NCBI GenBank assembly: GCA_963832195.1
Contig: CAWHTH010000006.1
Span: 331,974-395,973 of the forward strand
Reading direction: 5' to 3'
DNA from: an uncultured Conexibacteraceae bacterium
Lineage (GTDB): Bacteria; Actinomycetota; Thermoleophilia; Solirubrobacterales; Solirubrobacteraceae
DNA: 64,000 bases
Every line of letters starts with the position of its first letter. Positions within the stretch are counted from its first letter, which is position 1. The notes under the pieces were generated by a model. The model ran no database searches. It was not told where the DNA came from and worked only from the letters and a program-made list of their open reading frames with translations. Positions 10,227-61,801 of this stretch are shown in pieces. The position numbers and the translations under genes are program-made.

Positions 10227-10247
10227 CGGCTAGGCGATACTCGCCGC

Positions 10248-11138: not shown

Positions 11139-11142
11139 GCGG

Positions 11143-11550: not shown

Positions 11551-11609
11551 GGAACGCGAACGGGCCGCCCGAAGGCGGCCCGTTCGAACGACTGCGCGGA
11601 AGAGCGCGC

Positions 11610-12782
<1,173 letters not shown>

Positions 12783-12801
12783 TGGTCTGGTTTCTCCTTA
12801 G

Positions 12802-12819
12802 ATTGACTGGTCAGTCAAT
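12802..12819. promoter_or_regulatory. Candidate operator: inverted repeat ATTGACTG-GT-CAGTCAAT just upstream of the acyl-CoA dehydrogenase RBS
   Basis: Perfect 8+8 nt palindrome read directly, 20 nt upstream of the GTG start at 12782. Its size and position fit a TetR/FadR-type fatty-acid regulator site. No such regulator gene is adjacent. Confidence 0.45.
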
Positions 12820-12869
12820 GACCGTGGACAGAGTACCCCACTCCCTGGCGCAGGCAACACGGTTACCGG

Positions 12870-30166: not shown

Positions 30167-30793
30167 CTACCCGGCTCCTCCGGCGCCACGACGCCGCGGG
30201 GCTGTCCGGAAGACGTGGTCCCAGTACGGCGCGCTGACGCCGAAGCCGCGCTCGTCGTCCTGGAAGTGGTGGCGCATGTGCAGCTCGCGCAGCGCCCTGC
30301 CCATGGGCGTGCGCGGCGTGTGGTGATGCAAGTGGTAATGCAGCATGTCGTAGGCCAGGTACCCGACCAGGAACCCGCCGCCGAACGCCACGGCGGCGTC
30401 GTAGCCGAGCACCGCCCAGAACAGGCCCAGGAACGCCAGCGCCAGTGGGATCGACGCCGACGGCGGCATGACGAGCCTCAGCGGGTCGTTCGGGTGGTCA
30501 TGGTGGACGCCGTGGATCATCCAGTGCATCCGCGCGCCGACGCCGTCGTCGGGCTCGAAGTGGAAGACGACCCGGTGCAGCCAGTACTCGGTCAGGGTCC
30601 AGAAGACGTAGCCCGCGAGAGCGACGGCGATGCCCACCTGCGTGCCGAGGCGCTCCATGCCGGTGACCAGCAGGACTGCGATCGCCGGGCTGAAAAGGAC
30701 CAGCGGGACGGCTGGATGCACACGCGTGAAACGGTCAAGGACGACCGAGTCGAACATGGGCGGCGAAGCCCGCAGTTGCTCCGAGCGACGCAT
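30167..30793 (-). CDS. Fatty acid hydroxylase superfamily protein (FA2H/Scs7-like)
   Basis: 208 aa with the four His boxes in FA2H arrangement: HRVVFH, HGVHHDHPNDPLRLVMPP, YDMLHYHLHHH, HMRHHFQDDERGFGVSAPYWDHVF. Confidence 0.85.
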   Translation of the reverse strand: MRRSEQLRASPPMFDSVVLDRFTRVHPAVPLVLFSPAIAVLLVTGMERLGTQVGIAVALAGYVFWTLTEYWLHRVVFHFEPDDGVGARMHWMIHGVHHDHPNDPLRLVMPPSASIPLALAFLGLFWAVLGYDAAVAFGGGFLVGYLAYDMLHYHLHHHTPRTPMGRALRELHMRHHFQDDERGFGVSAPYWDHVFRTAPRRRGAGGAG

Positions 30794-30840
30794 CGTTGCC
30801 CAACTCTACCGCCCCTGCGGACAGTCCTGTTAGGGCTGCC

Positions 30841-31962
30841 TTAGAGCCCGCGTTCGTACATCCGGTAGCGCTTGACGATGCGGCCGTTCATCGCCTCCAT
30901 GCCCCGGTTCATCGCCTCGTTGGTCTCCAGGATCCAGCCCATCTCGCCGCCCTTTATGCGGGCATGGCGAGCGGCCGTGTCGAAGTGCTCGGCGTACAGG
31001 AGCGCCGCGACGCCGGTGTGCTGGTGCTCGGGCTTGACGCCGAGGAAGCCGACCCGCACGCGGTCGATGATCTTCGCCCTGCGCAGGAAGTGCCACCAGC
31101 CGAACGGGAGCAGCCGCCCCCGCATCCGCTCGAGCACCTGGTTTATGTCCGGCACGGTGATCGCGATCCCCACGGGCTCGCCATCGCTCTCGGCGACCAT
31201 GAACCAGTTGCGGTCGAAGACGAGCTGCAGCTCCTGGGCGTACGCGTCGAGGTCCTCCTTCGAATACGGCACGAAGCCCCAGTTCCGGCGCCAGGCGCGG
31301 TTGTAGATCTCGCCGAACAGGTCGAGGTCGCGGCGCAGGCGCCGGCGCGACATCCGCCGCAGCGTGACGCCGTGCTGCGACTGGGCCTGCTCGGCCAGCT
31401 CGAAGAGAATCGGTAGCGCCTGCTCGCGGTCAGCGACCTCCAGGTTCCACATGTACAGGTCCACCACCTTTTCGAGGCCCGCCTCCTCGCAGCGGCGCTG
31501 GTAATAGGGCGGATGCCAGGGCTGGCGCACCATCGGCCGCAGGTCGTGGCCGTCGATCACGATGCCGCTCTCGTCGTTCATCGCGAAGTCCGCCGGGCCG
31601 ACCATCCGCTGCATCCCACGCTCGCGCAGCCAGGCCTCGGCGGCGGCCAGGAGCGGCTCCAGCACGTCGGACTCGTCCTCGAGCTCCAGGAACCCGAACC
31701 AGCCCCAGCGCTCGCCGTGGTGCTCGTTGTAGGCGTGGTCGACGTGCGCGCTGATGCGCCCGACGACGCGCCCGGCGCGACGCGCCAGGAACAGCTGCGC
31801 CTCGCCGTGCTTGAAGAACGGCCCGAGCCGTCGGCTCAAAAAGATCCGGCGCTCGAGCCGCAGCGGCGGCACCCACGGCGTGCCCTCGTGGAGGCGGAAC
31901 GGCAGGTCGATGAACGCCCGGCGATCGCGGCCGCTCGCGACCGGAGTGACCTCGATGGGCAT
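30841..31962 (-). CDS. Large (373 aa) GNAT-family N-acyltransferase
   Basis: N-terminal FIDLPFRLHEGTPWVPPL..FFKHGEAQLFLARR.GRVVGRISAHVD. C-terminal GNAT motif A region GFLGVKPEHQHTGVAALLY. Confidence 0.75.
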   Translation of the reverse strand: MPIEVTPVASGRDRRAFIDLPFRLHEGTPWVPPLRLERRIFLSRRLGPFFKHGEAQLFLARRAGRVVGRISAHVDHAYNEHHGERWGWFGFLELEDESDVLEPLLAAAEAWLRERGMQRMVGPADFAMNDESGIVIDGHDLRPMVRQPWHPPYYQRRCEEAGLEKVVDLYMWNLEVADREQALPILFELAEQAQSQHGVTLRRMSRRRLRRDLDLFGEIYNRAWRRNWGFVPYSKEDLDAYAQELQLVFDRNWFMVAESDGEPVGIAITVPDINQVLERMRGRLLPFGWWHFLRRAKIIDRVRVGFLGVKPEHQHTGVAALLYAEHFDTAARHARIKGGEMGWILETNEAMNRGMEAMNGRIVKRYRMYERGL

Positions 31963-31989
31963 GGGCGGGGCACCCTATAGGGTGTCCAC

Positions 31990-33264
31990 GTGGCCCAGCG
32001 TGCCGCCGTCGATGTCTTCGAGAAGGCCCGCACGCACGAGCGCGCCGAGATCCTGCGCGCCGCCCGCGAGGCCGACGTGGTGCCCTATTTCCGCCTCCTC
32101 GAAGGTCCCGCGCGGCCGGTCGTAGAGATGGAGGGAGCCCAGCGGATCATGCTCGGCTCCAACAACTACCTCGGGCTCACGGCCGACGAGCGCGTCATCA
32201 ACGGCGCCCGCGAGGCGCTCGAGCGCTACGGCACCGGCCTGACCGGCTCGCGGCTCCTGAACGGCACGATCCCGCTGCACCTCGAGCTCGAGGCCGAGAT
32301 CGCGGACTGGATGGGCACCGAGGACGCGATCGTGTTCACGACGGGCCACCAGGCCAACATCGGGACGCTCGGCACGATCCTGCAGCCGGGCGACACCGTC
32401 GTGGCGGACTCCGGCGACCACGCCTCGATCCTCGATGGCTGCCTGCTGTCGCGCGCAAAGCTGCGGCCGTTCCGCCACAACCGGCTCGACAAGCTCGAGC
32501 GGGCGCTGGAGCGCGCTGCGGACGACGGCGGCGGCGTCCTCGTCGTCGTCGACGGCGTCTTCTCGATGGAGGGGGACATCGCCCCGCTGCGCGAGATCGC
32601 CGATCTGGCTCAGGCCCACGGCGCGCGGCTGATGGTCGACGAGGCTCACGGCGCCGGGGTCCTCGGCGCGCGCGGGGCCGGGACCGCCGAGCTGCTCCGG
32701 GTCGAGGACCGCGTCGACCTGCGGATGGGGACGTTCTCGAAGTCCCTGGCCTCGTGTGGAGGCTTCATCGCCGGCAGCGCCGAGGTGGTCGAGTTCCTAC
32801 GGATCCAGTCGCGCGCGTTCCTATTCACCGCCGCGGCCGTGCCGGCCGCCGTCGGCGCAGCGCTGGCGGCGCTGCGCGTAGTCCGCAGCGACGACGGCCG
32901 CGAGCTGATGGCGCGCGTGCTCGACAACGCGCGCTACCTGCGCGATGGCCTCGAGGAGCGTGGCTTCGCGGTGGTGGCACCGCAGCCGATCGGCGACGGC
33001 GGCGACATCGTCACGCCGATCGTGCCCGCGCTCGTCGGCGACGACTGGAAGGCCGCCCTGCTCTGGAAGGCGCTCTACGACGAGGGCGTCTTCGTCAACA
33101 CCGCGCTGCACCCCGCGGTGCCGCCCGGCGGGGCGCTTCTCCGCACCAGCGTCATGGCGACCCACGACCGCGCAACGCTCGAGGAGGCGCTCGATCGCTT
33201 CGCGTCGGTGAAGGCCCGCTTCGAGTCGGAGCACGGACCGTTGCCGGCTCCCGGTGCACACTGA
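31990..33264 (+). CDS. Alpha-oxoamine synthase, serine-palmitoyltransferase-like (PLP-dependent)
   Basis: 424 aa. YFRLLEG, MLGSNNYLGLT, YGTGLTGSRLLNGT, DSGDHASILDG, VVVDGVFSMEGDIAPL, MVDEAHGAGVLG, GTFSKSLASCGGF (PLP Lys). The GTFSKS and YF..E features fit SPT/ALAS-type enzymes better than BioF/KBL. Confidence 0.85.
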   Translation: MAQRAAVDVFEKARTHERAEILRAAREADVVPYFRLLEGPARPVVEMEGAQRIMLGSNNYLGLTADERVINGAREALERYGTGLTGSRLLNGTIPLHLELEAEIADWMGTEDAIVFTTGHQANIGTLGTILQPGDTVVADSGDHASILDGCLLSRAKLRPFRHNRLDKLERALERAADDGGGVLVVVDGVFSMEGDIAPLREIADLAQAHGARLMVDEAHGAGVLGARGAGTAELLRVEDRVDLRMGTFSKSLASCGGFIAGSAEVVEFLRIQSRAFLFTAAAVPAAVGAALAALRVVRSDDGRELMARVLDNARYLRDGLEERGFAVVAPQPIGDGGDIVTPIVPALVGDDWKAALLWKALYDEGVFVNTALHPAVPPGGALLRTSVMATHDRATLEEALDRFASVKARFESEHGPLPAPGAH

Positions 33265-33994: not shown

Positions 33995-34390
33995 TCAGCG
34001 CGTCGCGATCTCCAGCAGGTGTCCGTCGGGATCCCGGAAGTAGATCGAGCGGAAGCGCCCGCGCTCGAAGACCTCTGAGCAGGGCACGCTGCGCGAGTTG
34101 AGGTAGTCGCGCCAGGCCGCCTGCTCTGCCGCCGAGTCCACGGCGAACGCGAAGTGGTGGGTCGCGCCGCGCCCCTGGCGGCCCTCCTCCATCTGCGGGT
34201 ACTCCATGAACGACACGAGCGTCCCCGCCGCGCCCTGGGCGTCGCCGAACCAGAAGTGGCGCGCGCCGGGGTCGTCGTCGTTGGCGCCCTCCTGCACGAG
34301 CGCCAGCCCCAGGATGTCGCGGTAGAACGCGGTCGTGCGCTCGAGGTCGGCGACGATCGCCGTCACGTGATGCAGGCCGGAGAGCCGCAT
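33995..34390 (-). CDS. VOC-family (glyoxalase/bleomycin-resistance/dioxygenase) protein
   Basis: In-frame ATG at 34390 gives MRLSGLHHVTAIVADLERTTAFYRDILGL...HHFAFAV...IYFRDPDGHLLEIAT. The rest of listed ORF 33995..35053 is shadow sequence. Confidence 0.85.
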   Translation of the reverse strand: MRLSGLHHVTAIVADLERTTAFYRDILGLALVQEGANDDDPGARHFWFGDAQGAAGTLVSFMEYPQMEEGRQGRGATHHFAFAVDSAAEQAAWRDYLNSRSVPCSEVFERGRFRSIYFRDPDGHLLEIATR

Positions 34391-34446
34391 GCGGGGCGGG
34401 TCCGGGTTCTCGGGCGACGCCGGCGGGGGCGGCGTTGGCAGCTGGC

Positions 34447-34932
34447 TCACGCGCGAAAGCCTAGACCGCCGCTGCGGCGCATGAACGCCCTGCGCAAGAG
34501 CGTGAACGCGCCCGCGAACACCGCGACCGCCCACGCGAGGATCACGGCCTGAGGCAGCGACGTCAGGTAGAACAGGGGCAACGCGGCGACGATCGCACAG
34601 ATGCCCGCGAGCAGGCCCGAGTGGGAGCGAAAGCCGGCGAAGTGCTCGCGGACGGCCAGCTCGCCGGCGGAGAGGGAGATGAGCGTGATGCCGCAGGCGA
34701 TCAGGACGCCGCGCCGGTCCCCCGTCACAAGGAAGCCCCAGACCAGCAGCACGAGCGCGATCAGGATGCACAGCTCGTTGAGCGGGAACGGCGACCAGGG
34801 CGCCTGCGGCGCCTCCTCCATCCGCGCTCGGCGGTCCGGGACGCGCGGCGGCGCGGGGCGTGCCGCGGGCGCGGCAGCGGGGTCGCGCGTCGGCGCGGCG
34901 GTGGTCGCGCGCTTGCGCGAGCGTCGGCCCAT
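34447..34932 (-). CDS. Integral membrane protein (4 TM), unknown function
   Basis: 161 aa. Basic/Pro-rich N-terminus followed by four hydrophobic helices. Confidence 0.55.
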   Translation of the reverse strand: MGRRSRKRATTAAPTRDPAAAPAARPAPPRVPDRRARMEEAPQAPWSPFPLNELCILIALVLLVWGFLVTGDRRGVLIACGITLISLSAGELAVREHFAGFRSHSGLLAGICAIVAALPLFYLTSLPQAVILAWAVAVFAGAFTLLRRAFMRRSGGLGFRA

Positions 34933-34943
34933 GGGCGCGGATG

Positions 34944-35351
34944 CTACGAGGTGGCCGCGGCGGCGAGGGCCGCTTCGCGGCTACGGAACCAGACCACGCG
35001 TGTGACCTTGCCGTCTCGCACCGTCCAGAGGCCCCACTGCGGCTCTTCCACATCGGCCCCGCTGGCGCGTCCGCGACCGCGCATCGTCACGACGGAGATC
35101 ACCTGCGGCCCGGCCGCGAAGACCTCCTCGAGGTCATAGCGAACCCCCGCGAACACCTCGTAGATCTCCTGGAAGAAGCGCCGCAGGTCATCGTGTCCGC
35201 GCATCACCCTGCCGCCGGTCACCTGGCCCACCGGCGTGCCGGCCGTGTGCCATTCGATGTCCGGGTCGTAGAGGTCCAAGACGGTCGCCCTGTCCCCGCG
35301 CGCGAGCGCCTCGTACACCCTGCGCACGACGTCGACGGGCTGCCCGGCCAT
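34944..35351 (-). CDS. NTF2-like (SnoaL-like) protein
   Basis: In-frame ATG at 35351: MAGQPVDVVRRVYEALARGDRATVLDLYDPDIEWH..GHDDLRRFF.. This is the canonical SnoaL-like N-terminus. Confidence 0.75.
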   Translation of the reverse strand: MAGQPVDVVRRVYEALARGDRATVLDLYDPDIEWHTAGTPVGQVTGGRVMRGHDDLRRFFQEIYEVFAGVRYDLEEVFAAGPQVISVVTMRGRGRASGADVEEPQWGLWTVRDGKVTRVVWFRSREAALAAAATS

Positions 35352-35371: not shown

Positions 35372-35848
35372 TCAGGTGGCTAACGGGCAGCCCGACGAGA
35401 GCTTCACGTGCCACCACCCGGCGAGCATCCCGATGATGCCGAGGCGGGGCTTGACCTGCCAGACGCCGCAGCCGCCCTCGCCGAGGGCGGAGTTCGGGAG
35501 ACGCTGGAACTTGAAGCGGTGCGGCTCCGCGAGCATCCGCTCGAGCAGCACGCGGTTGTGCTCCCGGGCCTCGCCGCGCTCGTCGAGAACGCGGCGCGCG
35601 TCGGCGACGCGCTCCGACAGCGAGTCGCGCAGCGTCTCGAGCTCGCCGAGCGACAGCAGGCGCGGCCCCCCGGGCCCGGCGACACCGAACTCCAGCGGCG
35701 TGAACGGGAACGCGGAGACGACGCAGTCGGCCAGCTGACGCTCCAGGCGCGCGATCTGGTCGCGCAGCGAGCGGCGCGCCGCACGCAGATCCTCGGTCCC
35801 GACGGGGCCGAGAGAGAGGCCGCCAGCGCGTTCGTGGATCACGACCAT
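35372..35848 (-). CDS. Conserved hypothetical protein with a Cys-containing C-terminal motif
   Basis: 158 aa. Coiled-coil centre. C-terminus GCGVWQVKPRLGIIGMLAGWWHVKLSSGCP. No family assignment. Confidence 0.55.
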   Translation of the reverse strand: MVVIHERAGGLSLGPVGTEDLRAARRSLRDQIARLERQLADCVVSAFPFTPLEFGVAGPGGPRLLSLGELETLRDSLSERVADARRVLDERGEAREHNRVLLERMLAEPHRFKFQRLPNSALGEGGCGVWQVKPRLGIIGMLAGWWHVKLSSGCPLAT

Positions 35849-35872: not shown

Positions 35873-36523
35873 CTAGACGCTGGTCAACGCCTCGGCGGCC
35901 ATCCAGAGCGCCTCCTGCACGTGCACCTCGGGGACACCGGCGACCTGGATGCTCCACAGCTGCATCCGGCGCGTCTGGCCCCCGGGATCGTGAAAGCTCG
36001 ACATCCGCCCGAACAGCTCCGCGACCGGCCCGGCGGCGTCCGCGACCACGAGCCGCCCCACCGGGAGGTCATGGGCGTACTCGTCGGCTCCCAGCCGCTC
36101 CCCCGCGGCCGCCGGCCGGATCCCCAGCGGCCCGTCGAGCCGCTCGCCGTCGACCGCCCAGACGGGGACGCCGGTCTCCGCCACGGCCAGCAGCAGCGAG
36201 TCCGAGAGCCGGTCGCGCGAGCGGAACCCGCCCTGCTTCAGGCGGTTCATCGCGGCCTCCTCGACCGGCGTGCGCGTCGCGTCCGGGTCGAGGCCGACCT
36301 CGCGGTAGAAGATCCGGTAGGCCTGCGGGACGGGCCGCTGGCGCAGCAGGATCGCGTCGGCGCCGCGGAAGCGCGTCGACAGGTAGCCGAGCCGCTCCTT
36401 GAGCGCCTTCGAGCTGCGCCCCGTCCCGGCCTCGATCGGGGCGCCGAGCAGCCGCAGCTCCGGGAACTCCTCGTGGACCCGGTGGTCGACCCAGCCCTCC
36501 TCGAACTCGAGCTCGCCGATCAT
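35873..36523 (-). CDS. Solo B3/B4 (PheRS-beta-like tRNA-binding) domain protein
   Basis: In-frame ATG at 36523 (ATGA overlap with the upstream stop). AYRIFYREVGLDPDATRTPVEEAAMNRL..SLLLAVAETGVPVWAVD matches the B3/4-domain pattern. Confidence 0.65.
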   Translation of the reverse strand: MIGELEFEEGWVDHRVHEEFPELRLLGAPIEAGTGRSSKALKERLGYLSTRFRGADAILLRQRPVPQAYRIFYREVGLDPDATRTPVEEAAMNRLKQGGFRSRDRLSDSLLLAVAETGVPVWAVDGERLDGPLGIRPAAAGERLGADEYAHDLPVGRLVVADAAGPVAELFGRMSSFHDPGGQTRRMQLWSIQVAGVPEVHVQEALWMAAEALTSV

Positions 36524-37308
36524 CGCTCCAGCCGTTTCATCGCTGCCTCGAGCTCCGGCTCGCTCAGCTCGCCGAACGTCGTGTCGACGATACGCCCGCC
36601 CCGCCGCGCGAACGTGATCTGCGGGCAGACCGAGACGCCGTAGACGTTCGACACGCCGCCATCGCGGTCCCAGCCCACGGGGAAACTCCAGCGATGCTCG
36701 CGGATCAGGCCGCGCAGCTTGTCGCGGTCCCCGCGGATCGCCACCGCCGCGGCCTGGACCCGCGGATGGCGGCGCTGGACGCGCTCGAGCACGTCGAGCT
36801 GGCGGACGCACTGCGACCCGCGGTCCGCGAAGAACACGAGCACGACCGGGCCGCGCTCTCTGAGCTCGCACGAGTTCAGGATGTCCGCGCCCCGGACGTC
36901 GCAGGCCGGGCGGCGCCCGACCTCCTTGCTCTCCCCCTCGCGGCCCGTGGCCAGGTTGGCGTCGCCCTCGAGCGACGACAGCACGAGCGGCGCGGCGAAC
37001 GGCGCCAGGTCACCCCCGCTCGTCGGCGCCCGCACGCCGCCATTGGAGATCGCGTTGACCATCGCGACGATGATGACCAGCAGGAACACCACGCCGACGA
37101 ACCACACGTAGCGCGACGAGCCCGGCGGGCGCGGCACCGGTACGGGATCGCCCGGCTTCCGCCCTGGCGTTGGCTCGAAGTCGGGATCGCGGCGGTGCGC
37201 CCAGCGCCGGCGCTGCTCGGCGGCGTCGTCCTCGCGTGTCACTGAGGGGTCTGTCCCCTCGGTGTCATCGGGCTCGAAGTCGAGTGGCCCGCGCGGGTCG
37301 TCGCTCAT
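36520..37308 (-). CDS. Membrane-anchored TlpA/redoxin-like protein with a degenerate active site
   Basis: In-frame ATG at 37308 (ATGA overlap with the MMPL stop). TM helix YVWFVGVVFLLVIIVAMV. Thioredoxin-fold region VVLVFFADRGSQCVRQLD has a single Cys where CxxC is expected. The N-terminal tail contains element copy c. Confidence 0.7.
   Translation of the reverse strand: MSDDPRGPLDFEPDDTEGTDPSVTREDDAAEQRRRWAHRRDPDFEPTPGRKPGDPVPVPRPPGSSRYVWFVGVVFLLVIIVAMVNAISNGGVRAPTSGGDLAPFAAPLVLSSLEGDANLATGREGESKEVGRRPACDVRGADILNSCELRERGPVVLVFFADRGSQCVRQLDVLERVQRRHPRVQAAAVAIRGDRDKLRGLIREHRWSFPVGWDRDGGVSNVYGVSVCPQITFARRGGRIVDTTFGELSEPELEAAMKRLER
37237..37267. repeat. 31-nt palindromic element copy c (TGTCACTGAGGGGTCTGTCCCCTCGGTGTCA), in frame in the redoxin-like gene
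   Basis: 27/31 identical to copy a. On the coding (minus) strand it encodes TEGTDPSVT. Confidence 0.85.
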
Positions 37309-39928
37309 GCGGCCGGGGCGCGCGCGGGCGCGCCGGGGCGGCGCGGCAGCCTGACGCGCAGGAGGTGGCCGCGCTCGGCGAGCACGAGCACGGAGGGCAG
37401 CACGACCAGCACGCCGATCAGGGAGACGGTGAGGTCGACGACGGTGACCGCGCCGAAGTCGCGCAGCATGCGGATGTCGCTCAGGACGAGCACAGCGAAG
37501 CCGGCGATCGCGGTCGCGCCCGAAGCCAGCACTGCCGCCCCGGTCGAGCGATAGGTGCGCTCCAGCGCCTCCTGCGGCTCGTGGCCGGCCGCGCGCTCGC
37601 GCCGGTAGCGCTCGGCCAGCAGGACGGAGAACTCGGTCGAGATCGCGATCACGAGCGCGCCCAGGGTGACCGACATCGGGTTCAGCGGGATCTGGAGGCA
37701 GAAGAGCACGAGCGCCGACCAGCCGGTGGCCAGCGCGATCGGGATCAGCGGGACCACGGCGCGCTGCCACGAGCGCAGCGCTGCCAGCAGCACCAGCCCG
37801 ACCACCGCGAGGCCGGCGAGCAACAGCACCATCCGCCGCCACGTGGACGCGACGCGGTCGTTGGCTTCGGCCGCCAGCACCGGCAGCCCCGCGAGCTCGG
37901 CGCGCACGCCCGCCGGCGGCCGCAGCCGGGCGCGCATCGCCTCGATCACCTCCTGCTGGCGGTCGAGCGGCATCAGGCGGATGCCGAACGCGAGCGTCGC
38001 GGTCTTGCGGTCCGGCGTGATCACGCCCTGCGAGAAGTAGGCGGGTACGGCGTCGAGCAGGTCGTCGATCTGGTCCTTCGTGCGCGTCGACTGCTCGGAG
38101 CGGAACAGGTCCGGCAGCGAGAACGCCGGGCAGAGCTCGGCCTTCCCGCACCCGCGGGTGGAGCTGTAGCCGAAGCGCTTGAGGAGATCCCCCTGGTAGC
38201 GCGTCATCCAGCGCACGACCGCCGGCTCGGTCAGCCGGTCCGACGTCACGGTCACGTCGATCTGCCCGCCGACGCCGGTCGACTCCTGCAGCGCCTCGAG
38301 GTCGCGCAGCGCGCTCAGGTCCTGCGGCACGAGCTTCTGGATGTCGGACTCGACCTCGGTCTGGGTGTCGAGCGCCAAGGCCGATGACCGCCAGCGCCGC
38401 GCCGATCGCGAGCACCCGGGTAGGCCGGACCTGCGCGGCGCGCAGCGCACCGCCGCGCACGCGGGCGCCCACGGCGCCGAGCCGCCGCGCGACCGGGTTG
38501 TTGCGCAGCAGCTCCTCCGCGCCGCGCCCCGCGGGGGCGAACCGCTCAAGCGGGTTGCGCAGCCGGCCCGCAGCCGCTGAGCGCGGCGACGCCCAGCGTG
38601 AGCGCGCACAGCAGCGCCAGCGCGATGCCGCCGACGAGCAGGAACCCGAACGCCCGCACCATCGGCACCGGCGACAGCGCCAGCACCAGGAAGCCCGCCG
38701 CGGTCGCCGCGGCCGCGATCGCCACCGTCGGCGCCCCGTCGGCGGCCACCCCGTCGACCGCCGCGGCGAATGTCGGCGCCCGCCGCTCCTGTATTCGCGC
38801 CTGGAGCTGGATCGCGTAGTCGACCGCGAGGCCGATCAGCACCGGCAGCACGCCGATCGAGGCCATCGTCAGCTCTGCGCCGAGCAGCGACAGCACCCCG
38901 AACGTGAGGCCGGCCGCGGCCACGGCCACGCCCAGCGGCAACAGCCGCGCGGGCGCCCTGAACACCACCGCGAGCGTCAGCGCCATCACGATCAGCGCCG
39001 CGACCAGCAGCAGGAGGATCGACGAGCTGATCGAGTCCGTGAGGTCGGCGACCACCACGGGCGCGCCGGTCACCACGTACGTGCCGCCGTTGCGCAGCCG
39101 CCAGTCGGACATCGCGACCGCGCCGCGCACTAGCTCGATCGCCTCGCGGCGCCGGCTCTCGCTCAGGCCCGGCTTGAGCCGCACCTGCACGAGCGCGCTG
39201 TTGCGGTTCGGGAACAGGTAGGCGAAGCGCGCCTTCGGCGTCCCCGCCCGCTTCGTGTTGTCGAAGACGAGCTGCGCCACGAAGTCCGGGTCGTTGAGCT
39301 TCGGGATCGAGCGGATCCCGTAGCGCAGCGCGAGCTGCAGCGAGTCGCGCAGGAACTCGTTGTAGACCAGCTGCTCGGCCTGCTTGCCGAACTGGCGCGA
39401 GCGCTGCTTCGAGTAGCCGCGCCCGCGCGCGAGCTTGTACGCGGCGTCGGAGGCGCGCTTGGCCTGCTCGGCCTTCGCGCGCGTGCGCGCGCCGAACTGG
39501 TCGGAGATCTGGCGTACGGACTCGTTGATGAACGTCCCGGGCCCGAACACGACCTTGACCGGCTTCTCGCGCGCGAGGCGGCCGCACGGGCCGTTCGCCC
39601 CGCCCCGGATCTTGGCGCCCTTCGGCGCGTTGCCCGAGATGCAGCCCTCGAGCCCCAGTAGGCGCTCGATGTCCGAGGTCAGCACCAGCTTCGACAAGTC
39701 GCCGCGCACGAGCACGATGACAGCGTCCTCACCGAAGCGCTGGTGGTAGCGGTCGGTGGCCTTGAAGCTGTCGGTCCCGCGGCCCACGAGCGTGTCCGTC
39801 GCCGCGCTCGGCTCCAGGCGCAGCGCGAGCCCGCCGCCGACTGCCGCCAGCAGCCCGACGGCCAGCCCGACGGCCAGCGGCCGGCGCGCGGCGCTGCCCA
39901 TCAGCGCCTTCAGGACGGAGACCAGCAT
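37305..39928 (-). pseudogene. MMPL/RND-family transporter split over three frames (two +1 shifts, or sequencing indels)
   Basis: N-terminal half = ORF 38546..39928 (TM bundle ..VDYAIQLQARI..). The linker GRLRNPLERFAPAGRGAEELLRNNPVARRLGAVGARVRGGALRAAQVRPTRVLAIGAALAVIGL is in the frame of ORF 36520..38472. The C-terminal half, from LDTQTEVESDIQKLVPQD.., is in the frame of ORF 37305..39587. Confidence 0.8.
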
Positions 39929-39950
39929 GGGCGTGCTGGTCCGCCTGGCC

Positions 39951-41033
39951 CTACTCCATGCCGAGCGGGCCCTGGGACTCGCCGGAGAGGAACTGCCGCA
40001 CGAACGCGTTGTCCGAGTTGAACAGTTCCTCGGCGGGGCCTGACTCGACGATGCGGCCCTTCCACAGCACCGAGATGTGCTCGGCGACGCGGCGGGCGCT
40101 CATGATGTCGTGTGTGATGACCACGTAGGCGCCGCCGTTCTCCTCGTGGATCTCCTGGATGAGCTCGCACAGGAGGGCGGTGCGGACGGGGTCGAGCCCG
40201 GAGTCGGGCTCGTCGAAAAGGACGATGTCGGGGTCGAGCACGAGCGCGCGCGCGAACCCGGCGCGCTTGCGCATGCCGCCCGACAGCTCGTTGGGCATCT
40301 TGTCGCCGGAGTCCGCCAAGCCGACCTCGCGCAGGCGGCCGTTGCAGATCTCGGCGATCTCGTCCTCGCCCTTGTCGGTGTGCTGGCGCAGCGGGAAGGC
40401 GACGTTGTCGTACAGGTTCATCGAGCCGAACAGCGCGCCGTCCTGGAACAGCACGCCGAACTTCTTGCGCATCTCGAACAGCTCGTCGTCCTGCATGTTC
40501 GGGACGGACTCGCCGTGCACGAGCACGTCGCCCTCGTCGGGGTACAGCAGGCCGACCATGTGCTTGATGCAGACGCACTTCCCGGTGCCCGAGGGGCCAA
40601 GGATCATCGAGATCTTGCCCTCGGGGATGCCCATGTTCAGGCCGCGCAGGATCTTGTTGCGCCCGAACGCCTTGTGGACGTCGACGAACTCGACCGCATC
40701 CGGCACGCCCGTCGGGCGGTTCAGGCCGGTGTGCCACTTGTACTCGTCGTCGGCGTCCGGCGCGGCCTCCTGGACGACGCTGACGCGCCCTCTCTCCTGC
40801 TCTTCCTTCGCGGCCGATGGCTCCTCCGCTGAGGCCTCGGCGGCCGCGTCCTGCTCCTGAGCCCGGACCTCCTCGGGCTGGTCCTCCACATCTTCACGCG
40901 TCGGCTGGTCCTCGAACGGCGCCGGCTCGTCGGACGGCAGCCACTCCGAGGACTTGCCCTCGTCCTTCTTCTTGGCCGCGGGCTTCTTGGCCTTGTCCTT
41001 GTCGTCCTTCGGCTCACGCGGGATCCGCGGCAT
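39951..41033 (-). CDS. MlaF/Mkl-type ABC ATPase with a 110-aa charged N-terminal extension
   Basis: In-frame ATG at 41033. GPSGTGKCVCIKHM, LSGGMRKRAGFARAL, VLFDEPDSGLDP. The N-terminus is MPRIPREPKDDKDKAKKPAAKKKDEGK.. followed by an acidic stretch. Confidence 0.88.
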   Translation of the reverse strand: MPRIPREPKDDKDKAKKPAAKKKDEGKSSEWLPSDEPAPFEDQPTREDVEDQPEEVRAQEQDAAAEASAEEPSAAKEEQERGRVSVVQEAAPDADDEYKWHTGLNRPTGVPDAVEFVDVHKAFGRNKILRGLNMGIPEGKISMILGPSGTGKCVCIKHMVGLLYPDEGDVLVHGESVPNMQDDELFEMRKKFGVLFQDGALFGSMNLYDNVAFPLRQHTDKGEDEIAEICNGRLREVGLADSGDKMPNELSGGMRKRAGFARALVLDPDIVLFDEPDSGLDPVRTALLCELIQEIHEENGGAYVVITHDIMSARRVAEHISVLWKGRIVESGPAEELFNSDNAFVRQFLSGESQGPLGME

Positions 41034-41035
41034 GC

Positions 41036-41833
41036 TCAACCTCCGATCGGGGCGCGCGGGTTCGCGCCCCAGAACAGCTGGGTCCCGAGCATCCCGATGA
41101 GATGCACGAGGACGATGTTCAAGACCATTGACTTGGCGGTCGCGGTACCCACCCCGACGGGACCACCGCCCGCGTTGTAGCCGTAGTAACAGCCCACTAG
41201 GACGATGGCGGTCGCCATCGCCATGCCCTTGATGACGCTGTACAACAGGTCGGGCGGGTTCTGGAACATCCAGAAGATCAGGAAGAACCCGCCGGACGAG
41301 ACCTCGCCTATCTGTTCGACCACCGCCAGGTAGCTGGCGAAGAACCCGGCGCCGACGGCGGCGAGGTACATGAACGGCAGCACGAGCCACGCGGCCAGCA
41401 GGCGGGTGGCGCACAGGAACGTGATCGAGTTGATGCCCATGACCTCGAGGGCGTCGATCTCGTCCGAGATGCGCATCGAGCCGAGCTCGGCGACGATGCC
41501 GGTGCCGACCTTCGCGGACATCATGTAGCCGAAGGCGTAGGGCACCAGCTCGCGCAGGTCGCACCAGGCCGCGAACACGCCCGCGTACGCGGGAGCGCCG
41601 ACCGCGCGGTTGAAGTACGCGCCCTCGATGCCGCACTGGAGGCCGATGATGAACACCAGGCCCCAGATCACGATCGTCGAGGAGAGGATCAGGATGCCCG
41701 ACTGGCGCAGCGCCTCGCCGAAGAAGCGGAAGACGCGCAGCCCGTAGACGTGCCCGAGCACGCGCCCGCAGAACTTCGCGATCTCGCCGGCCGAGGCGAT
41801 CCAGTCGCGCGGGACTGCGAACCAGCCGCCCAT
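41036..41833 (-). CDS. MlaE/YrbE-family ABC permease (second copy)
   Basis: 265 aa. MRISDEIDALEVMGINS and the GG.GVG.A...S motifs of MlaE/YrbE permeases. Confidence 0.88.
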   Translation of the reverse strand: MGGWFAVPRDWIASAGEIAKFCGRVLGHVYGLRVFRFFGEALRQSGILILSSTIVIWGLVFIIGLQCGIEGAYFNRAVGAPAYAGVFAAWCDLRELVPYAFGYMMSAKVGTGIVAELGSMRISDEIDALEVMGINSITFLCATRLLAAWLVLPFMYLAAVGAGFFASYLAVVEQIGEVSSGGFFLIFWMFQNPPDLLYSVIKGMAMATAIVLVGCYYGYNAGGGPVGVGTATAKSMVLNIVLVHLIGMLGTQLFWGANPRAPIGG

Positions 41834-42639
41834 CAGCGGATCACCTGGATCTCGGGATGGGTGGCAAGCAGCGTCTGGGTGAACACGTAGTTGAACGCGA
41901 ACACGCCGAGGAAGGCGATCACCACCGCCTGGTTGACGGCTCTACCCACCCCCTCCGCGCCACCGGAGGCGGTCATGCCCTTGTAACAGCAGACGATCGC
42001 GATGATCGCGCCGAACAAGGTGCATTTGAGGACCGACCCCCAGAGGTCCGTAGTAGAGGCGTTCGTGAAGAAGGTGGCCCAGAACGGGCCCAGCGGGGCG
42101 CCGTTCACAAGGGTTGCGATGACGCCGCCGAAGATGCCGAACAGCAGCGCGTAGACGTCGAACAGGCCGGTGACGAGCATCAGCGCCAGGAAGCGCGGCA
42201 CGACGAGGTTCTTGACAGGGTCGACGCCGAGGACCTGCAGGGCGTCGAGCTCCTCGCGGATCTTGCGGGCGCCGAGGTCCGCGGTGATGGCGGTGCCGGC
42301 GACGCCGGCGAGCACGATCGCGTCGACGAACGGCGCGAACTCTCTAATAGACGCGAGCACGAAGAAGCCGCCGAGCCGGTCCAGCGCGCCGAACAGGACG
42401 AGGAAGTTGGCGGCCTGCAGCCCGGGCGCGCCGTAGCCGAACGCCACGGTCGAGACCAGCAGCGGGAACCAGCACAGGCGCAGCGCGAACAGGAACTGCG
42501 ACACGAACTCGCCGCCGTACGGGTACGGCGGGCGAAGCGCAGAGACAATCGTCTTGCCGGTCAGGATCATCATGTCCCCGACCTCTTCGAGGACGCCCTT
42601 CGTCGGCAGGAAGACTCGATCAGCGGCGCTGCGGACCAC
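41833..42639 (-). CDS. MlaE/YrbE-family ABC permease (first copy)
   Basis: 268 aa. KIREELDALQVLGVDP, SGGAEGVGRAVNQAVV. Its stop overlaps the next start by 1 nt. Confidence 0.88.
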   Translation of the reverse strand: MVRSAADRVFLPTKGVLEEVGDMMILTGKTIVSALRPPYPYGGEFVSQFLFALRLCWFPLLVSTVAFGYGAPGLQAANFLVLFGALDRLGGFFVLASIREFAPFVDAIVLAGVAGTAITADLGARKIREELDALQVLGVDPVKNLVVPRFLALMLVTGLFDVYALLFGIFGGVIATLVNGAPLGPFWATFFTNASTTDLWGSVLKCTLFGAIIAIVCCYKGMTASGGAEGVGRAVNQAVVIAFLGVFAFNYVFTQTLLATHPEIQVIR

Positions 42640-42807: not shown

Positions 42808-43416
42808 ATGCTCGCGCGCGTGAAGCTGACCGGGAGGAGCACGGCCTTTGCGCTCGTCGCCGTCCTCGGTTCGACGACGCTCGTCGCGGGCTGCGGCGGC
42901 GGCGATCGGCAGGACAAGGACGAGAAGGCCGGCAGCTACGAGGTCGAGGTCGTCGACGCGAAGTTCCCGGCCAAGCAGACGCTCGCCAAACAGGTCGAGT
43001 TCTCGGTCCAGGTCAAGAACACCGGCCGCGAGGACGTCCCGAACATCGCCGTCACGCTCGACTCGTTCGCGGCCCGCTCCGAGCAGCCCGGCCTCGCCGA
43101 CCCGGAGCGCCCGGTCTGGATCATCGACTCGGGCCCGCGCGGCGGCACGACCGCTTACACGAACACATGGGCACTCGGCGCCCTGCGCCCGGGCGAGATG
43201 CAGACGTTCACCTGGCGCGTGACCGCGGTCCGTCCCGGCACGCACAAGGTCAACTGGCAGGTCGCAGCCGGCCTCGACGGCAAGGCCAAGGCCGTTCCAG
43301 CCTCGGGCAGCGAGCTCGAAGGCTCTTTCACGGTCGACATCGCGCGCGAGCCGGCGCAATCGCGCGTCGATCCGGACACGGGCGACGTCATCCGCGAGGG
43401 CGACGAGTCCTCGTAG
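42808..43416 (+). CDS. Lipoprotein with an Ig-like/CARDB-like beta domain
   Basis: In-frame ATG at 42808. Lipobox LVAGC. FSVQVKNTGREDVPNIAVTL is reminiscent of CARDB-type domains. Confidence 0.6.
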   Translation: MLARVKLTGRSTAFALVAVLGSTTLVAGCGGGDRQDKDEKAGSYEVEVVDAKFPAKQTLAKQVEFSVQVKNTGREDVPNIAVTLDSFAARSEQPGLADPERPVWIIDSGPRGGTTAYTNTWALGALRPGEMQTFTWRVTAVRPGTHKVNWQVAAGLDGKAKAVPASGSELEGSFTVDIAREPAQSRVDPDTGDVIREGDESS

Positions 43417-44861: not shown

Positions 44862-47480
44862 TCAGGAGATGTGCTCGAGCGCTCGCGCCATCGCCGCTTC
44901 GAACGCGAGCGACCGCCCGCGCTCACGCGCGGCTTCGCGGGTGTCGTCGTCGAGGCTCGCGCCAACCATGGCCTCGCTTCGCGCACGAACGAACGCCTCG
45001 TAAGCCGGCGCCGCGCCGCCGAGAACCTCGCGCAGGCGCTCGGCGGTGCCGAGGAGCTCTGAGCCCGCTTCGGCTTCGCCCATTCGGGCGACCAGGCCGG
45101 CCGTGGTCTCCAGGCAATGCGCACCGCAGTTGCGGTTGTCCATCTGGTGGTAGAGAGGAAGCGCCTTGGCGAGGCATTCGCGGGCCACGTGGAGATCGCC
45201 GCGGGCCTCCGCGCCGATGGCGCGGAACTCCCAGATGTGGGCCTGCCAGTTCGGCGCGGGGATCTGATCGATCAGCACGGCCGCTTCCTCCAACATGGCC
45301 CATGCGCGGTCGACGTCGCGGTCGACCCACCACAGCGCGCACAGCGCCACCGTGAGGCCGACCATCAGAGGATCCTCGGATCGCCGAGCCACCTCGATCC
45401 CGTCCTCGATCAGGCCGCTGAGCTCAGCCTCCGTGATTCCCCCGCCGACGTGAACGCCCCAGGCATTGATCACCAACCAGAGATATGCAGCGGCCTGCGC
45501 GACGGTGTCGCCGGTCGCGCGCGCGATCTCGAGGCTCGCCGTGCAAAGCCGGGTGCCCTCCTCCCATACTCCGCTCTGGAAGCACAACCGCCCCGCCGCG
45601 AGCAGCCCCGCGGCGCGAACCGCATCTGAAACGTCGCCGGGGGCGGCGAGCAACCGCTCCATCATCGGCTGTGCTTCGCGCATGTGCCCGCGCCAGAGCC
45701 AGAACCCGGCGACGCTGATTGATGCGATCTTCAGGCCGGCCTCGGGATTGCCGGAGGCCAGCGACCACTCGAGCGCCGCGCGGGTGTTGTCGAGCTCGGT
45801 CTCGAGCAGGTCGAGGCAGCGCGCCTGCGCCAGACCGCTGAGTCCCGGCTCGACCTGTTGCGCGAAGGCGACCATCCAGTCCAAATGCGCGTCGCGGACC
45901 TCCTTCGCGCGCCCCGTTTCTTGGAGGCGATCGCGGCCGTACTGGCGCAGCGTTTCGAGCAACCGGTAGCGGACTACACCGTCGCGCGCCTCGTCGCGAA
46001 CCACGAGCGACTTGTCCACGAGCGTGCCGAGCCCCGCGAGGACCTCCCGCCGCTCCATCCCGCACGAAGCGCAGACGTCGGCCGCCGCATCCACCGTCCA
46101 GCCGCCGACGAAGACGGAGAGGCTGTCGAACAGGGTGCGGTGTCGGTCGTCGAGCAGGTCATAGCTCCACGCGACGGTGGCCTCGAGCGTGCGCTGGCGC
46201 GGCAGCGCCGTGCGTGCGCCGCCAGTCAGCAGCGTGAAGCGATCGTCGAGGTGAGCCGCCAGGTCGGCGAGCGAGAAGGAAGCTGTACGCGCGGCGGCGA
46301 GCTCGATCGCCAGCGGCAGGCCGTCGAGCCGCCGACACAGTTGCGTCACGAGCGGTTCCGACTCGCCCTCGAAATCGACACCTGGCTGCGCGTCGCGCGC
46401 ACGGTCGGTGAATAGCGCGACGGCGTCCGGGTCGGGGAGCGATGCGGTGCGGAACACGACCTCCCCGGGAATTCCGAGCGGCTCCCTGCTCGTGGCGAGG
46501 ACACGCAGGTTCGCCGCCTCCTGGAGCAGATCCTGCGCCACCCGTGCGGACTCGTCCACGAGGTGCTCGCAGTTGTCGACGACCAGGAGGAGCATCTCCG
46601 CGTCGCGCACGCGCGCGAGCACGTCGTCGCGCAGCGGGGTGTCCGGACGCTCGCGGACCCCGAGCGCCTGTGCGAAGGCCTTGATCACCAGGCCCGGATC
46701 GGCGACCGGGGCAAGGTCGACCAGCCAGGCGCCGCCTGACAGGTCCTCTGCACGGCGAGCCGCAAGCTCGAGCGCGAGGCGCGTCTTCCCCGTGCCACCG
46801 GCGCCGGTGAGAGTGACGAGACGCGCGTCGGTGAGGAGCGCGCCGATCTCCTCGAGCTCATGCTCGCGGCCTACGAACGTCGTCAGCTGGAGCGGCAGGT
46901 TGGTGCTCGGCGCGTCCGCCCTGCGCCCGGGGGTCGTGGGAGGTCCGGCGAGCAACGGGAAGGGGTTCTCGGGCTCCGGGGAATAGGTGCAGAACGCGCC
47001 TGTCTTCACAGCGCGCTCGAGATGGACACCGAGCTGCGGCAGCTCGTCCGCGATGTGGCGGACCGCCTTGCGGATCGCGCGGCCGACGCTCTGCCGCGCG
47101 CGCTCGGCCTGAGAGGCGGCCGGCCGGTCACGACCACCGAGTCCCACGGCCTGCGCCAGCTCGCGGCCGATGAAGTCGAGCTCCTCTTGGGCGCGCGCGG
47201 CACGCTCGTCGTCGTTCCAGGTCCGCGCCTCCTCCAGCTCTTCGCGCAGCCCCTGTACACGTGCGCGGTACTCGGACTTGGCCTGCTCGTCCAGCACCGG
47301 CGCCGCGCTCTCGGCCACCGTCGCCTCGGGAGCCGCGAGCTCGAGCACGTGCAGCTCCGCGCCGGGGTGCGCCAGCAGCGTCGCCAGATATTCGAGTCCC
47401 TTCGACGACTTCAGGCGCACCTCGGCCCCGCCGTGGCACACAGCCCAGTAGTCGCCCTCCCGCCACAGCCCTTGGTCCAT
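44862..47480 (-). CDS. STAND (NB-ARC-like) NTPase with a C-terminal TPR array and an N-terminal domain of unknown function
   Basis: P-loop LTGAGGTGKTRLALE, LLVVDNCEHL, GLPLAIELAA, then a TPR-like region. N-terminus has GDYWAVCHGGAEVRLKSSKGLEYLATLLAHPG. The ATG at 47480 has a GGGAGG RBS. The listed alternative start is 47534. Confidence 0.85.
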   Translation of the reverse strand: MDQGLWREGDYWAVCHGGAEVRLKSSKGLEYLATLLAHPGAELHVLELAAPEATVAESAAPVLDEQAKSEYRARVQGLREELEEARTWNDDERAARAQEELDFIGRELAQAVGLGGRDRPAASQAERARQSVGRAIRKAVRHIADELPQLGVHLERAVKTGAFCTYSPEPENPFPLLAGPPTTPGRRADAPSTNLPLQLTTFVGREHELEEIGALLTDARLVTLTGAGGTGKTRLALELAARRAEDLSGGAWLVDLAPVADPGLVIKAFAQALGVRERPDTPLRDDVLARVRDAEMLLLVVDNCEHLVDESARVAQDLLQEAANLRVLATSREPLGIPGEVVFRTASLPDPDAVALFTDRARDAQPGVDFEGESEPLVTQLCRRLDGLPLAIELAAARTASFSLADLAAHLDDRFTLLTGGARTALPRQRTLEATVAWSYDLLDDRHRTLFDSLSVFVGGWTVDAAADVCASCGMERREVLAGLGTLVDKSLVVRDEARDGVVRYRLLETLRQYGRDRLQETGRAKEVRDAHLDWMVAFAQQVEPGLSGLAQARCLDLLETELDNTRAALEWSLASGNPEAGLKIASISVAGFWLWRGHMREAQPMMERLLAAPGDVSDAVRAAGLLAAGRLCFQSGVWEEGTRLCTASLEIARATGDTVAQAAAYLWLVINAWGVHVGGGITEAELSGLIEDGIEVARRSEDPLMVGLTVALCALWWVDRDVDRAWAMLEEAAVLIDQIPAPNWQAHIWEFRAIGAEARGDLHVARECLAKALPLYHQMDNRNCGAHCLETTAGLVARMGEAEAGSELLGTAERLREVLGGAAPAYEAFVRARSEAMVGASLDDDTREAARERGRSLAFEAAMARALEHIS

Positions 47481-49296: not shown

Positions 49297-49743
49297 ATGA
49301 ACACCATCCACACAGGGCGTAAGCGGTCATCTTGCGTCGCCGCAACCGCTGCGCTCGCGGCGTGCTTGTCGCTCACCACCGCCGGGACCGGTGTGCGGCA
49401 GCGCTACGAGCGGTATGCGTCGACGCTGGCGGATCGTCGTGCGAACCCCGTCGCGGCCGCGGCTGCGGCAGCGCACGAGGTGCCCAGCTGCCTGTTCCCC
49501 GACAACCAGGAGGCATTCGACGCCGCGCTCGCCGAGTCGCTCGCCGCGGTGCCGGACGGTCGGGCGGAGGTCGCCGGCGTGGCGCTCGGGCGGGCCGTCC
49601 TCTTCCGCCGTGGCGCGAGTGTGAATCGGACGCGAAACCCACCTCGCCGCGCGCGGGCTCAGCGCGCACGGACCGTCCGGGTCGTCGCGCGCACGCGGCG
49701 CCCGGCGGCGTCGGTGACCGAGCCGGAGATGCGGACCCGGTAG
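49297..49743 (+). pseudogene. Truncated N-terminal fragment of a PAP2/vanadium-haloperoxidase-like secreted protein
   Basis: GGAGGGG RBS and the ATG at 49297. Signal peptide. Then AAAAAAHEVPSCLFPDNQEAFDAALAESLAAVPDGRAEVAGVALGRAV, which resembles the N-terminal helices of that family. The reading frame degenerates where it overlaps the convergent 49659..52055 gene. Confidence 0.35.
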
Positions 49744-52055: not shown

Positions 52056-52064
52056 GCCCCCAAT

Positions 52065-52091
52065 GACGCCGCGCGCTTCCGTTTTTCTCCC
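52065..52091 (-). promoter_or_regulatory. ECF-type promoter motif copy P2: GGGAGAAA-N15-CGTC
   Basis: Minus strand reads GGGAGAAA AACGGAAGCGCGCGG CGTC. The CGTC ends 9 nt before the ATG at 52055, implying a leaderless or near-leaderless mRNA. Confidence 0.6.
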
Positions 52092-52118
52092 GGGAGAAAT
52101 CCTCCCGCGCGCGGCGTC
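52092..52118 (+). promoter_or_regulatory. ECF-type promoter motif copy P1: GGGAGAAA-N15-CGTC
   Basis: GGGAGAAA TCCTCCCGCGCGCGG CGTC, 37 nt upstream of the ATG at 52156 (GGGAGG RBS at 52143-52148). Confidence 0.6.
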
Positions 52119-52155
52119 GTCAAGAGCAACCAAGCAACCACTGGGAGGCTCTCTC

Positions 52156-52647
52156 ATGAAGGTCACGACCAGGATCAGTCGCTTCCGGCCCAGCCGCACG
52201 ACGGCAGTCGCCGTCGCGGCACTCGTCGTCGCCACGGGCGGCATCGCGTTCGCGACGATCCCCGCGTCCGACGGCGTCATCCATGCCTGCTTCTTGAAGT
52301 CGGGCGGCACGCTGCGCGTCATCGACAGCGCGACCGGCAAGTGCAAGTCGACCGAGCAGTCGCTCAGCTGGAACCAGCGGGGCATTCCCGGAGCGCCGGG
52401 CGGCCTGTCGGGCTATCAGCGCGTGTCCGAACGCTTCGCCAACACGCAGCGAGGCGTCGCCCGCTGCCCCGAGGGCAAGATGGCGGTGGGCGGTGGGTAC
52501 AGCGTCACCCTTCCCACCTCGACGCCAGGGCTCCGTAAGAGCCTGTCAGGGCAGGACGGGAACGGCATCCAGCTCTGGCTCGTGGAGTTCGACGAGCCCG
52601 TCGAAGATTTTGCCGTCGAGGTGATCTGCGCGAACGGGAGCGAGTAG
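52156..52647 (+). CDS. Secreted protein sharing the N-module of 44133..44783
   Basis: In-frame ATG at 52156. MKVTTRISRF..VVATGGIAFATIPASDGVIHACFLKSGGTLRVIDSATGKCKSTEQSLSWNQRGIPGAPG, then an unrelated Cys-containing C-domain. Confidence 0.75.
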   Translation: MKVTTRISRFRPSRTTAVAVAALVVATGGIAFATIPASDGVIHACFLKSGGTLRVIDSATGKCKSTEQSLSWNQRGIPGAPGGLSGYQRVSERFANTQRGVARCPEGKMAVGGGYSVTLPTSTPGLRKSLSGQDGNGIQLWLVEFDEPVEDFAVEVICANGSE

Positions 52648-61764: not shown

Positions 61765-61795
61765 TGACAAGGTTGTGTCAAGGTTGCGATAGGCT
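61765..61795 (+). promoter_or_regulatory. Candidate promoter TTGACA-N19-TAGGCT with a 10-nt-phased direct repeat CAAGGTTG x2
   Basis: TTGACA at 61765-61770. CAAGGTTG at 61769-61776 and 61779-61786. TAGGCT at 61790-61795, 6 nt before the metH ATG, suggesting a leaderless or very short leader. Confidence 0.3.
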
Positions 61796-61801
61796 TACCC
61801 C

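Follow-up and report, generated by a model that had tools for sequence, protein, structure and literature searches.

A YrbEA-YrbEB-MceG transporter core beside an MMPL module in a Solirubrobacterales genome, probably left by loss of six mce genes

Within a stretch of 64,000 nucleotides (nt) of contig CAWHTH010000006.1 from an uncultured Conexibacteraceae bacterium (assembly GCA_963832195.1; the whole stretch is hereafter called the window), two MlaE/YrbE-type permease genes and the gene for an MceG/Mkl/MlaF-type ABC ATPase lie on the minus strand directly ahead of genes for an MMPL transporter, a membrane-anchored thioredoxin-fold protein and a solo B3/4-domain protein, with no MCE-domain gene among them. 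Comparison with related loci, some of which hold six mce genes after the ATPase gene and others of which hold mce genes ahead of the MMPL gene, makes it probable that this locus is the YrbEA/YrbEB/MceG core of a canonical actinobacterial Mce transporter, the six mce genes of which, once encoded in cis, have been lost.

The locus and its missing mce genes

The window has a G+C content of ~70%, and the best matches of its proteins lie in the Solirubrobacterales (Thermoleophilia, Actinomycetota), Paraconexibacter and Conexibacter being the nearest named relatives. Genes were called with a codon-usage model trained on the window, together with translations, and domains were assigned by Pfam and NCBIfam scans. 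The locus reads as follows (aa, amino acids):

42808-43416, plus strand: divergent lipoprotein with a signal peptide, an LVAGC lipobox and a DUF11/CARDB-like domain (Pfam DUF11, 26.3 bits)
41833-42639, minus strand: MlaE1, YrbEA-type permease, 268 aa (PF02405, 192.6 bits)
41036-41833, minus strand: MlaE2, YrbEB-type permease, 265 aa (PF02405, 179.9 bits)
39951-41033, minus strand: MceG/Mkl/MlaF-type ABC ATPase, 360 aa (ABC_tran, 90 bits)
39929-39950, no strand: putative deletion junction, a 22-nt spacer standing where relatives hold ~9 kb with six mce genes
37305-39928, minus strand: gene for an MMPL/HAE3-type RND transporter (PF03176 in both halves, 91.7 and 113.9 bits)
36520-37308, minus strand: membrane-anchored thioredoxin-fold (redoxin-like) protein, 262 aa (AhpC-TSA, 23.4 bits, cutoff 26)
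35873-36523, minus strand: solo B3/4-domain protein, 216 aa (PF03483, 29.1 bits, cutoff 29.3)
35372-35848, minus strand: p158, a conserved 158-aa protein with a coiled-coil N-terminus and a hydrophobic C-terminus

An earlier note, made from the sequence alone, had read the stretch from MlaE1 to the B3/4 gene as six consecutive minus-strand genes with junctions of -1, +2, +22, -4 and -4 nt, and our gene calls and translations reproduced these values. The two permease genes overlap by 1 nt, the start of the thioredoxin-fold gene overlaps the MMPL stop by 4 nt, and the B3/4 and thioredoxin-fold genes likewise overlap by 4 nt. The same note had found no MCE/MlaD-domain gene in the operon or in the window, and this was borne out by two kinds of search: nine Mce proteins from Solirubrobacterales, compared by tblastn with six frames of all 64 kb, gave a best E value of 0.036, and PF02470 was unmatched in Pfam scans of about half of the window's predicted proteins, the remainder appearing by eye to be unrelated enzymes and transporters. 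No STAS domain was matched among the proteins scanned, nor was a MlaB/STAS-type gene noticed in the cluster.

The best match of MlaE1 among solved structures is YrbE1A of M. smegmatis in the Mce1 complex (8FED; E = 3e-36), with 128.7 bits as against ~78-94 bits for MlaE. Among NCBIfam models the ATPase matches MlaF best (216 bits), well ahead of other ABC families though short of that model's equivalog cutoff of 441; the core of the protein begins at about residue 113 and is preceded by ~112 low-complexity residues rich in Lys, Asp and Glu. A tandem MlaE/YrbE pair, an Mkl/MlaF-type ATPase and YrbE1A as the best structural match are thus what the locus shares with the actinobacterial Mce system (YrbEA/YrbEB with MceG/Mkl and MceA-F), from which it differs in the variable low-complexity N-terminal extension of the ATPase. 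The gene order yrbEA-yrbEB-ATPase also departs from the mkl-yrbEA-yrbEB order of the 'mce6'-type operons of Streptomyces and Nocardia (PMC1810536). These operons bear on the earlier statement that Actinomycetota encode Mkl away from yrbE, which holds for mycobacteria and fails for Streptomyces, Nocardia and others, where mkl is operon-linked (PMC1810536). Downstream, where Mas/Mam proteins have been described in Actinomycetales, we find MMPL, thioredoxin-fold, B3/4 and p158 genes, no search aimed at Mas/Mam having been made. With the Gram-negative Mla system (MlaFEDB) the locus has in common a MlaE-family permease and a MlaF-like ATPase; in contrast to the MlaE homodimer of that system, two different permease genes, and hence a heterodimer, are present here, and MlaD is absent.

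Related loci and the deletion junction

A scan of one genome per species with the permease returned 80 loci, which were annotated by tblastn using the window proteins and the Mce proteins of a related contig (L-numbers denote relatives' loci compared with the window). Three layouts were distinguished. In type A, seen in 35 of the 80 loci, the lipoprotein gene and a MlaE-MlaE-ATPase set are followed by six PF02470 genes, as in the actinobacterial Mce operon and as missing from the window; the complete genome of Paraconexibacter sp. AEG42_29 belongs here, as does Conexibacter arvalis, in which a match to MlaE2 was not detected. Type B (~29 of the 80) begins in the same way and then, like the window, has MMPL, the thioredoxin-fold gene, B3/4 and p158, so that the arrangement is not peculiar to this genome, a matter on which phylogenomic profiling had been proposed. 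Type C comprises orphan MlaE pairs from which the ATPase gene is absent; a p158-like gene comes next and is translationally coupled to them. A homologue of the lipoprotein stands upstream of MlaE1 in mce-containing and MCE-less loci alike. Extensions at the N-terminus of the ATPase likewise occur in both operon types, measuring 0-178 aa in loci with mce genes and 8-193 aa in loci without them, lengths that are approximate in that the underlying start codons are our own calls. The extension reported in the earlier note is thus real, and with the ranges overlapping it was rejected as a mark of the MCE-less state.

Two variants within these layouts may be recorded. The orphan YrbE pairs of L019, L024, L036 and L064 (at ~10000-12100 in each) lie behind a divergent GntR-type gene, with neither ATPase nor mce genes. 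In two of the genomes the orphan pair is close to the main YrbE copy at the nucleotide level (99.4% identity for L026/L036, confined to the two permease genes, and 98.4% for L062/L064), which indicates recent duplication or gene conversion. In the MCE-less loci L083 and L085 (~11,690-12,850), an extra Ala-rich gene of ~387 aa, to which no family was assigned, is inserted between the MlaE2 and ATPase genes, and the B3/4 and p158 genes are absent.

A second comparison was anchored on the B3/4 gene and read upstream of it in the relatives. The closest of these, the farmland-soil scaffold L088, encodes a B3/4 protein 92% identical to that of the window and aligns with the window's DNA at 90.8% identity over 39931-35336 and 90.6% over 34980-31559. 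It carries at least five MlaD-domain genes ending 14 nt ahead of an intact 873-aa MMPL gene, which is followed by the same downstream genes. L089 and L090 have the layout of L088, mceF and MMPL overlapping by 4 nt in L089, and L008 and L087 proved to be parts of one 760-kb contig on which the lipoprotein gene, two YrbE genes, the ATPase gene and six mce genes are separated by a 5-kb insert from MMPL, the thioredoxin-fold gene and B3/4. Altogether, mce genes lie upstream of the MMPL module in L087-L090, directly so in three of these four (L088, L089 and L090). The p158 gene follows B3/4 both in loci with mce genes and in loci without them. On this comparative evidence, the YrbE/MceG genes are physically linked to the MMPL-redoxin-like-B3/4 module across the order. 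The two modules need not be co-transcribed, given the 5-kb insert of L087 and the genes that intervene between ATPase and MMPL in two further loci (an opposite-strand LysR-type gene in L017, several unrelated genes in L026). The gene order of L087-L090 implies an ancestral order yrbEA-yrbEB-mceG-mceA..F-MMPL-(thioredoxin-fold)-(B3/4)-p158, from which the window lacks the mce block only.

The two sets of relatives meet in the spacer between the ATPase and MMPL genes. Resemblance to L088 begins at 39931, which is 3 nt ahead of the MMPL start codon (ATG), whereas the type-A loci L008 and L016 cease to resemble the window precisely at 39951, where the ATPase gene has its stop codon; between the two breakpoints lies a unique 21-nt filler, and no repeat is found at either of them. 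When the filler was sought in the deleted region of relatives, only chance matches with at least 3 mismatches were obtained. Soil-metagenome contigs from near relatives diverge from the window at 39931 and at 39950, one of them being identical over 122 nt of the 3' end of the ATPase gene, and none spans the junction. The mce block alone would accordingly appear to have been taken out by a clean deletion of ~9 kb, which would leave the ATPase stop 22 nt from the MMPL start, so that both modules now look like a single operon.

A misjoin of the ATPase gene to MMPL during assembly, the six mce genes being really present, would produce the same picture. The assembly is visibly indel-prone, and the junction is reproduced by no public contig or read set. 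We nevertheless regard such an artefact as very improbable: the breakpoints show no repeat and are separated by a unique filler, they are exactly intergenic with both reading frames preserved, and ~29 further genomes, the work of various groups using various assembly methods, independently have this layout.

The state of the MMPL gene bears on whether the locus is still alive. In the window this gene does not form one open frame: relative to the intact orthologue of L088 it carries an additional C near 38570 and an additional G near 38376, both of them 1-nt insertions, that shift transmembrane helix 7 and the C-terminal half of the protein into other frames. Both PF03176 halves are nonetheless present, the frameshifts falling between them. 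The gene is intact in relatives, its orthologues measuring 873-928 aa (921 aa in the type-B locus L002, for example). Two other genes of the window are broken in a similar manner. The homocysteine S-methyltransferase domain of metH (61,780-62,530, plus strand) is spread over four frame segments, which takes three frameshifts or more. One frameshift, at ~21,850, splits an SDR gene (21306 to ~22080, minus strand) into two segments. Stitched translations of both genes give full-length Pfam domains (1-282 of the 283 positions of PF02574, and 9-236 of the 236 of adh_short_C2). The assembly evidently carries indel errors, and with the metH and SDR frameshifts lying in the same window, those of MMPL are most simply explained as assembly errors too, an explanation that we consider likely. 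The view of MMPL as a true pseudogene was downgraded once the metH and SDR frameshifts had come to light.

A decaying locus would be the alternative, in which the system died upon loss of the mce genes, MMPL became a pseudogene, and the YrbE and MceG genes were orphaned too recently to show damage. The deletion is indeed recent, the nearest relative (~91% nucleotide identity) retaining its mce genes, and the two MMPL frameshifts are absent from L088, the extra base at 38570 also being absent from one related metagenome contig. Against decay, however, stand the frameshifts in metH and the SDR gene, which point to assembly errors, the undamaged state of the rest of the cluster's genes, and the other MCE-less lineages, in which all genes are kept intact and under constraint. 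We therefore view decay as an unlikely explanation of the locus.

Constraint on the permeases and the partner of the core

Across the order the YrbE permeases are 80-97% identical (MlaE1 88-97% over the 80 Solirubrobacterales loci and 86-97% among all the matches listed, MlaE2 80-93% in related loci), compared to only 35-70% for the accompanying Mce, MMPL, B3/4 and thioredoxin-fold proteins. Judged from these alignments, such conservation is unusually strong for membrane permeases.

One clade of a neighbour-joining tree built from both permease genes took in more than 20 MCE-less loci, and the window, L017, L020 and L083/L085 appeared as isolated MCE-less tips among mce-containing relatives. 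This topology would correspond to at least four or five independent losses of the mce genes. No mce remnants were found in MCE-less loci; in these, L017 and L026 apart, the gap between the ATPase and MMPL genes ranges from -4 to 354 nt. Pairwise ratios of nonsynonymous to synonymous substitutions (dN/dS) were 0.047 for MlaE1 and 0.10 for MlaE2 within the MCE-less clade, and 0.087 and 0.165, respectively, among mce-containing loci, values that are meaningful only as a comparison between the two groups, dS being probably underestimated in this codon-biased, GC-rich DNA. Per-site entropy revealed no relaxed segment in the MCE-less permeases, and just three near-fixed substitutions per permease set them apart. 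Relaxed or shifted constraint in the MCE-less permeases was thus rejected on the basis of dN/dS and per-site entropy, which together place the permeases under full constraint in loci devoid of cis mce genes.

Six Mce proteins normally build a lipid tunnel atop the YrbEAB-MceG base. By analogy with Mce and Mla systems (8FED, PMC1810536), a YrbEAB heterodimer and an MceG dimer would form an ATP-driven base that may still be a competent engine. In the window's source organism, the most likely partner of this core is an Mce hexamer whose genes lie at another place in the genome. Sharing in trans appears to be normal in the order, for orphan YrbE pairs with no adjacent ATPase gene exist there. In mycobacteria, one MceG serves several operons. 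The MMPL/HAE3 protein would be a separate, proton-driven lipid transporter and a constant downstream neighbour, rather than a substitute for the MCE tunnel; the thioredoxin-fold protein, translationally coupled to it, may be one of its accessory subunits, and the B3/4 protein is predicted to be cytoplasmic. Comparison with relatives, where MMPL and the divergent lipoprotein both coexist with six mce genes, does not support the proposal that either of them stands in for MCE; since the same is true of the thioredoxin-fold protein, B3/4 and p158, none of the five appears to replace MCE.

Several observations weigh against a loss of the mce genes compensated in trans. Both MMPL frameshifts lie within 200 nt of each other and fit real mutation as well as they fit assembly error. 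The junction was not seen in reads, no indexed run containing this genome (best word share, 0.14), nor was the exact junction found in JGI metagenome contigs. No mce gene of the source genome was seen in the 64 kb available, so that the partnership in trans is one that we infer, and the presence of YrbE and MceG genes ahead of the mce genes of L088 is likewise deduced from synteny.

A rival reading is an assembly that works independently of MCE proteins, in which YrbEAB-MceG would act directly with MMPL/HAE3, the thioredoxin-fold protein, p158 or the lipoprotein. The MCE-less layout has arisen repeatedly, persists in a whole clade and is tightly spaced, its permeases are under very strong purifying selection, and the coupling of a p158 homologue to orphan YrbE pairs is a hint that some of the downstream genes go together with YrbE. 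A genome with no MCE protein at all would be out of the ordinary, the phylogenetic profiles of YrbE and Mce coinciding exactly in the classic actinobacterial surveys (PMC1810536). In its fullest form, this reading would have the MCE-less lineages (the clade of more than 20 species and possibly the source genome) devoid of any MCE protein, with a core that, for instance, flips or extracts a lipid for MMPL/HAE3 and its thioredoxin-fold partner, p158 being a YrbE-bound accessory. We consider it unlikely, both in outline and in this form: in the closest relatives the proposed partners are all found together with six mce genes and none is specific to the MCE-less state, ATPase and MMPL (L017, L026) or mce and MMPL (L087) can be separated by other DNA, and the few near-fixed substitutions of the MCE-less permeases mark no altered region. 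To our knowledge, every known MlaE/YrbE permease functions under MCE proteins arranged as a ring or needle, and if the MCE-independent reading were true, this would be the first MlaE-family ABC transporter without an MCE tunnel.

Under the preferred reading, that of a canonical core bereft of its cis mce genes, an order of soil Actinomycetota would have repeatedly and cleanly discarded six mce genes while keeping the permeases and the ATPase almost unchanged beside an RND/MMPL module. Should the partners be encoded elsewhere, this would amount to ordinary operon reshuffling and illustrate how freely Mce components are shared in trans; should they be truly absent, these lineages would offer a natural experiment on an ABC core acting alone.

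The downstream module and neighbouring genes

The likeness of the window's MMPL to the MMPL/HAE3 group (MmpL3/4/5, HpnN) lies in its two PF03176 halves and in HAE3 as the best model. The intact orthologue of L088 has TIGR00921 (HAE3) as its best NCBIfam match, at 323.7 bits and under the cutoff of 351.9, and similarity to solved proteins is weak (MmpL4, MmpL5, MmpL3 and HpnN in the PDB; best E = 1e-13). Where the known MmpL systems have an MmpS partner upstream, a thioredoxin-fold membrane protein is found downstream here.

This protein resembles TlpA/ResA and AhpC/TSA proteins in its N-terminal membrane anchor and thioredoxin fold, with all family scores under their cutoffs (ResA model, 29.9 bits, far under; a weak Redoxin match). 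In place of the CxxC active site of TlpA/ResA it has a single conserved Cys, embedded in GSQC in the window. The earlier note had taken this for a TlpA-like CxxC reduced to one Cys; the lone Cys was, however, kept in 29 of 29 aligned sequences (the window and 28 orthologues), in an x-x-x-C and mostly S-x-x-C context with no conserved Pro, and is thus a trait of the family rather than decay peculiar to this genome. It may be the counterpart of the peroxidatic Cys of peroxiredoxins (PxxxTxxC motif). In every case, translational coupling joins the thioredoxin-fold gene to the end of MMPL, and this coupling and the lone Cys together suggest, at the sequence level, a dedicated accessory protein as opposed to a thiol-disulfide oxidoreductase.

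Most close homologues of the B3/4 protein carry a precomputed PF03483 assignment, and in the PDB it is matched only weakly, by PheRS beta (E = 0.02). Pfam and NCBIfam gave no family for p158, which may be a YrbE accessory given the coupling of its homologue to the orphan YrbE pairs of L019, L024, L036 and L064.

The co-directional cluster extends past 35873, through p158, to three more genes, beyond which an alpha-oxoamine synthase gene marks the end of the syntenic block:

34944-35351, minus strand: SnoaL-like gene (Pfam match)
34447-34821, minus strand: 124-aa membrane protein, in the same-strand tail of the cluster (Pfam scan)
33995-34450, minus strand: glyoxalase gene (Pfam match)
31990-33264, plus strand: alpha-oxoamine synthase, 424 aa (Aminotran_1_2, 200 bits)

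Annotation of the related loci by tblastn with the window proteins brought up no SnoaL homologue, and the membrane protein and glyoxalase genes follow each other in the same order in L087-L091. On the other side, the locus is flanked by genes for a STAND/AAA-type NTPase of ~870 aa (44862-47480, minus strand) and a ~900-aa secreted protein that weakly matches a PKD domain (49659-52385, minus strand), neither of which has an evident link to it.

The alpha-oxoamine synthase, matched best in NCBIfam by serine palmitoyltransferase models (under cutoff), is also encoded in L087-L091 and in those MCE-less loci that are long enough to include the position. In the window it belongs to a lipid-gene neighbourhood (30167-33264), adjacent to the MMPL module, together with a divergent gene for a 373-aa GNAT-like protein and a fatty-acid hydroxylase gene. 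This neighbourhood could represent a ceramide- or sphingolipid-like pathway and so provide a clue to the transported lipid; the conserved coupling of an mce operon to MMPL, thioredoxin-fold, B3/4 and p158 genes near sphingolipid-synthesis-like genes would help to trace the lipid substrate in these little-studied bacteria. The trio is complete in L090 and represented by a subset in L087-L089 and L091, L089 adding a gene for a neutral/alkaline ceramidase.

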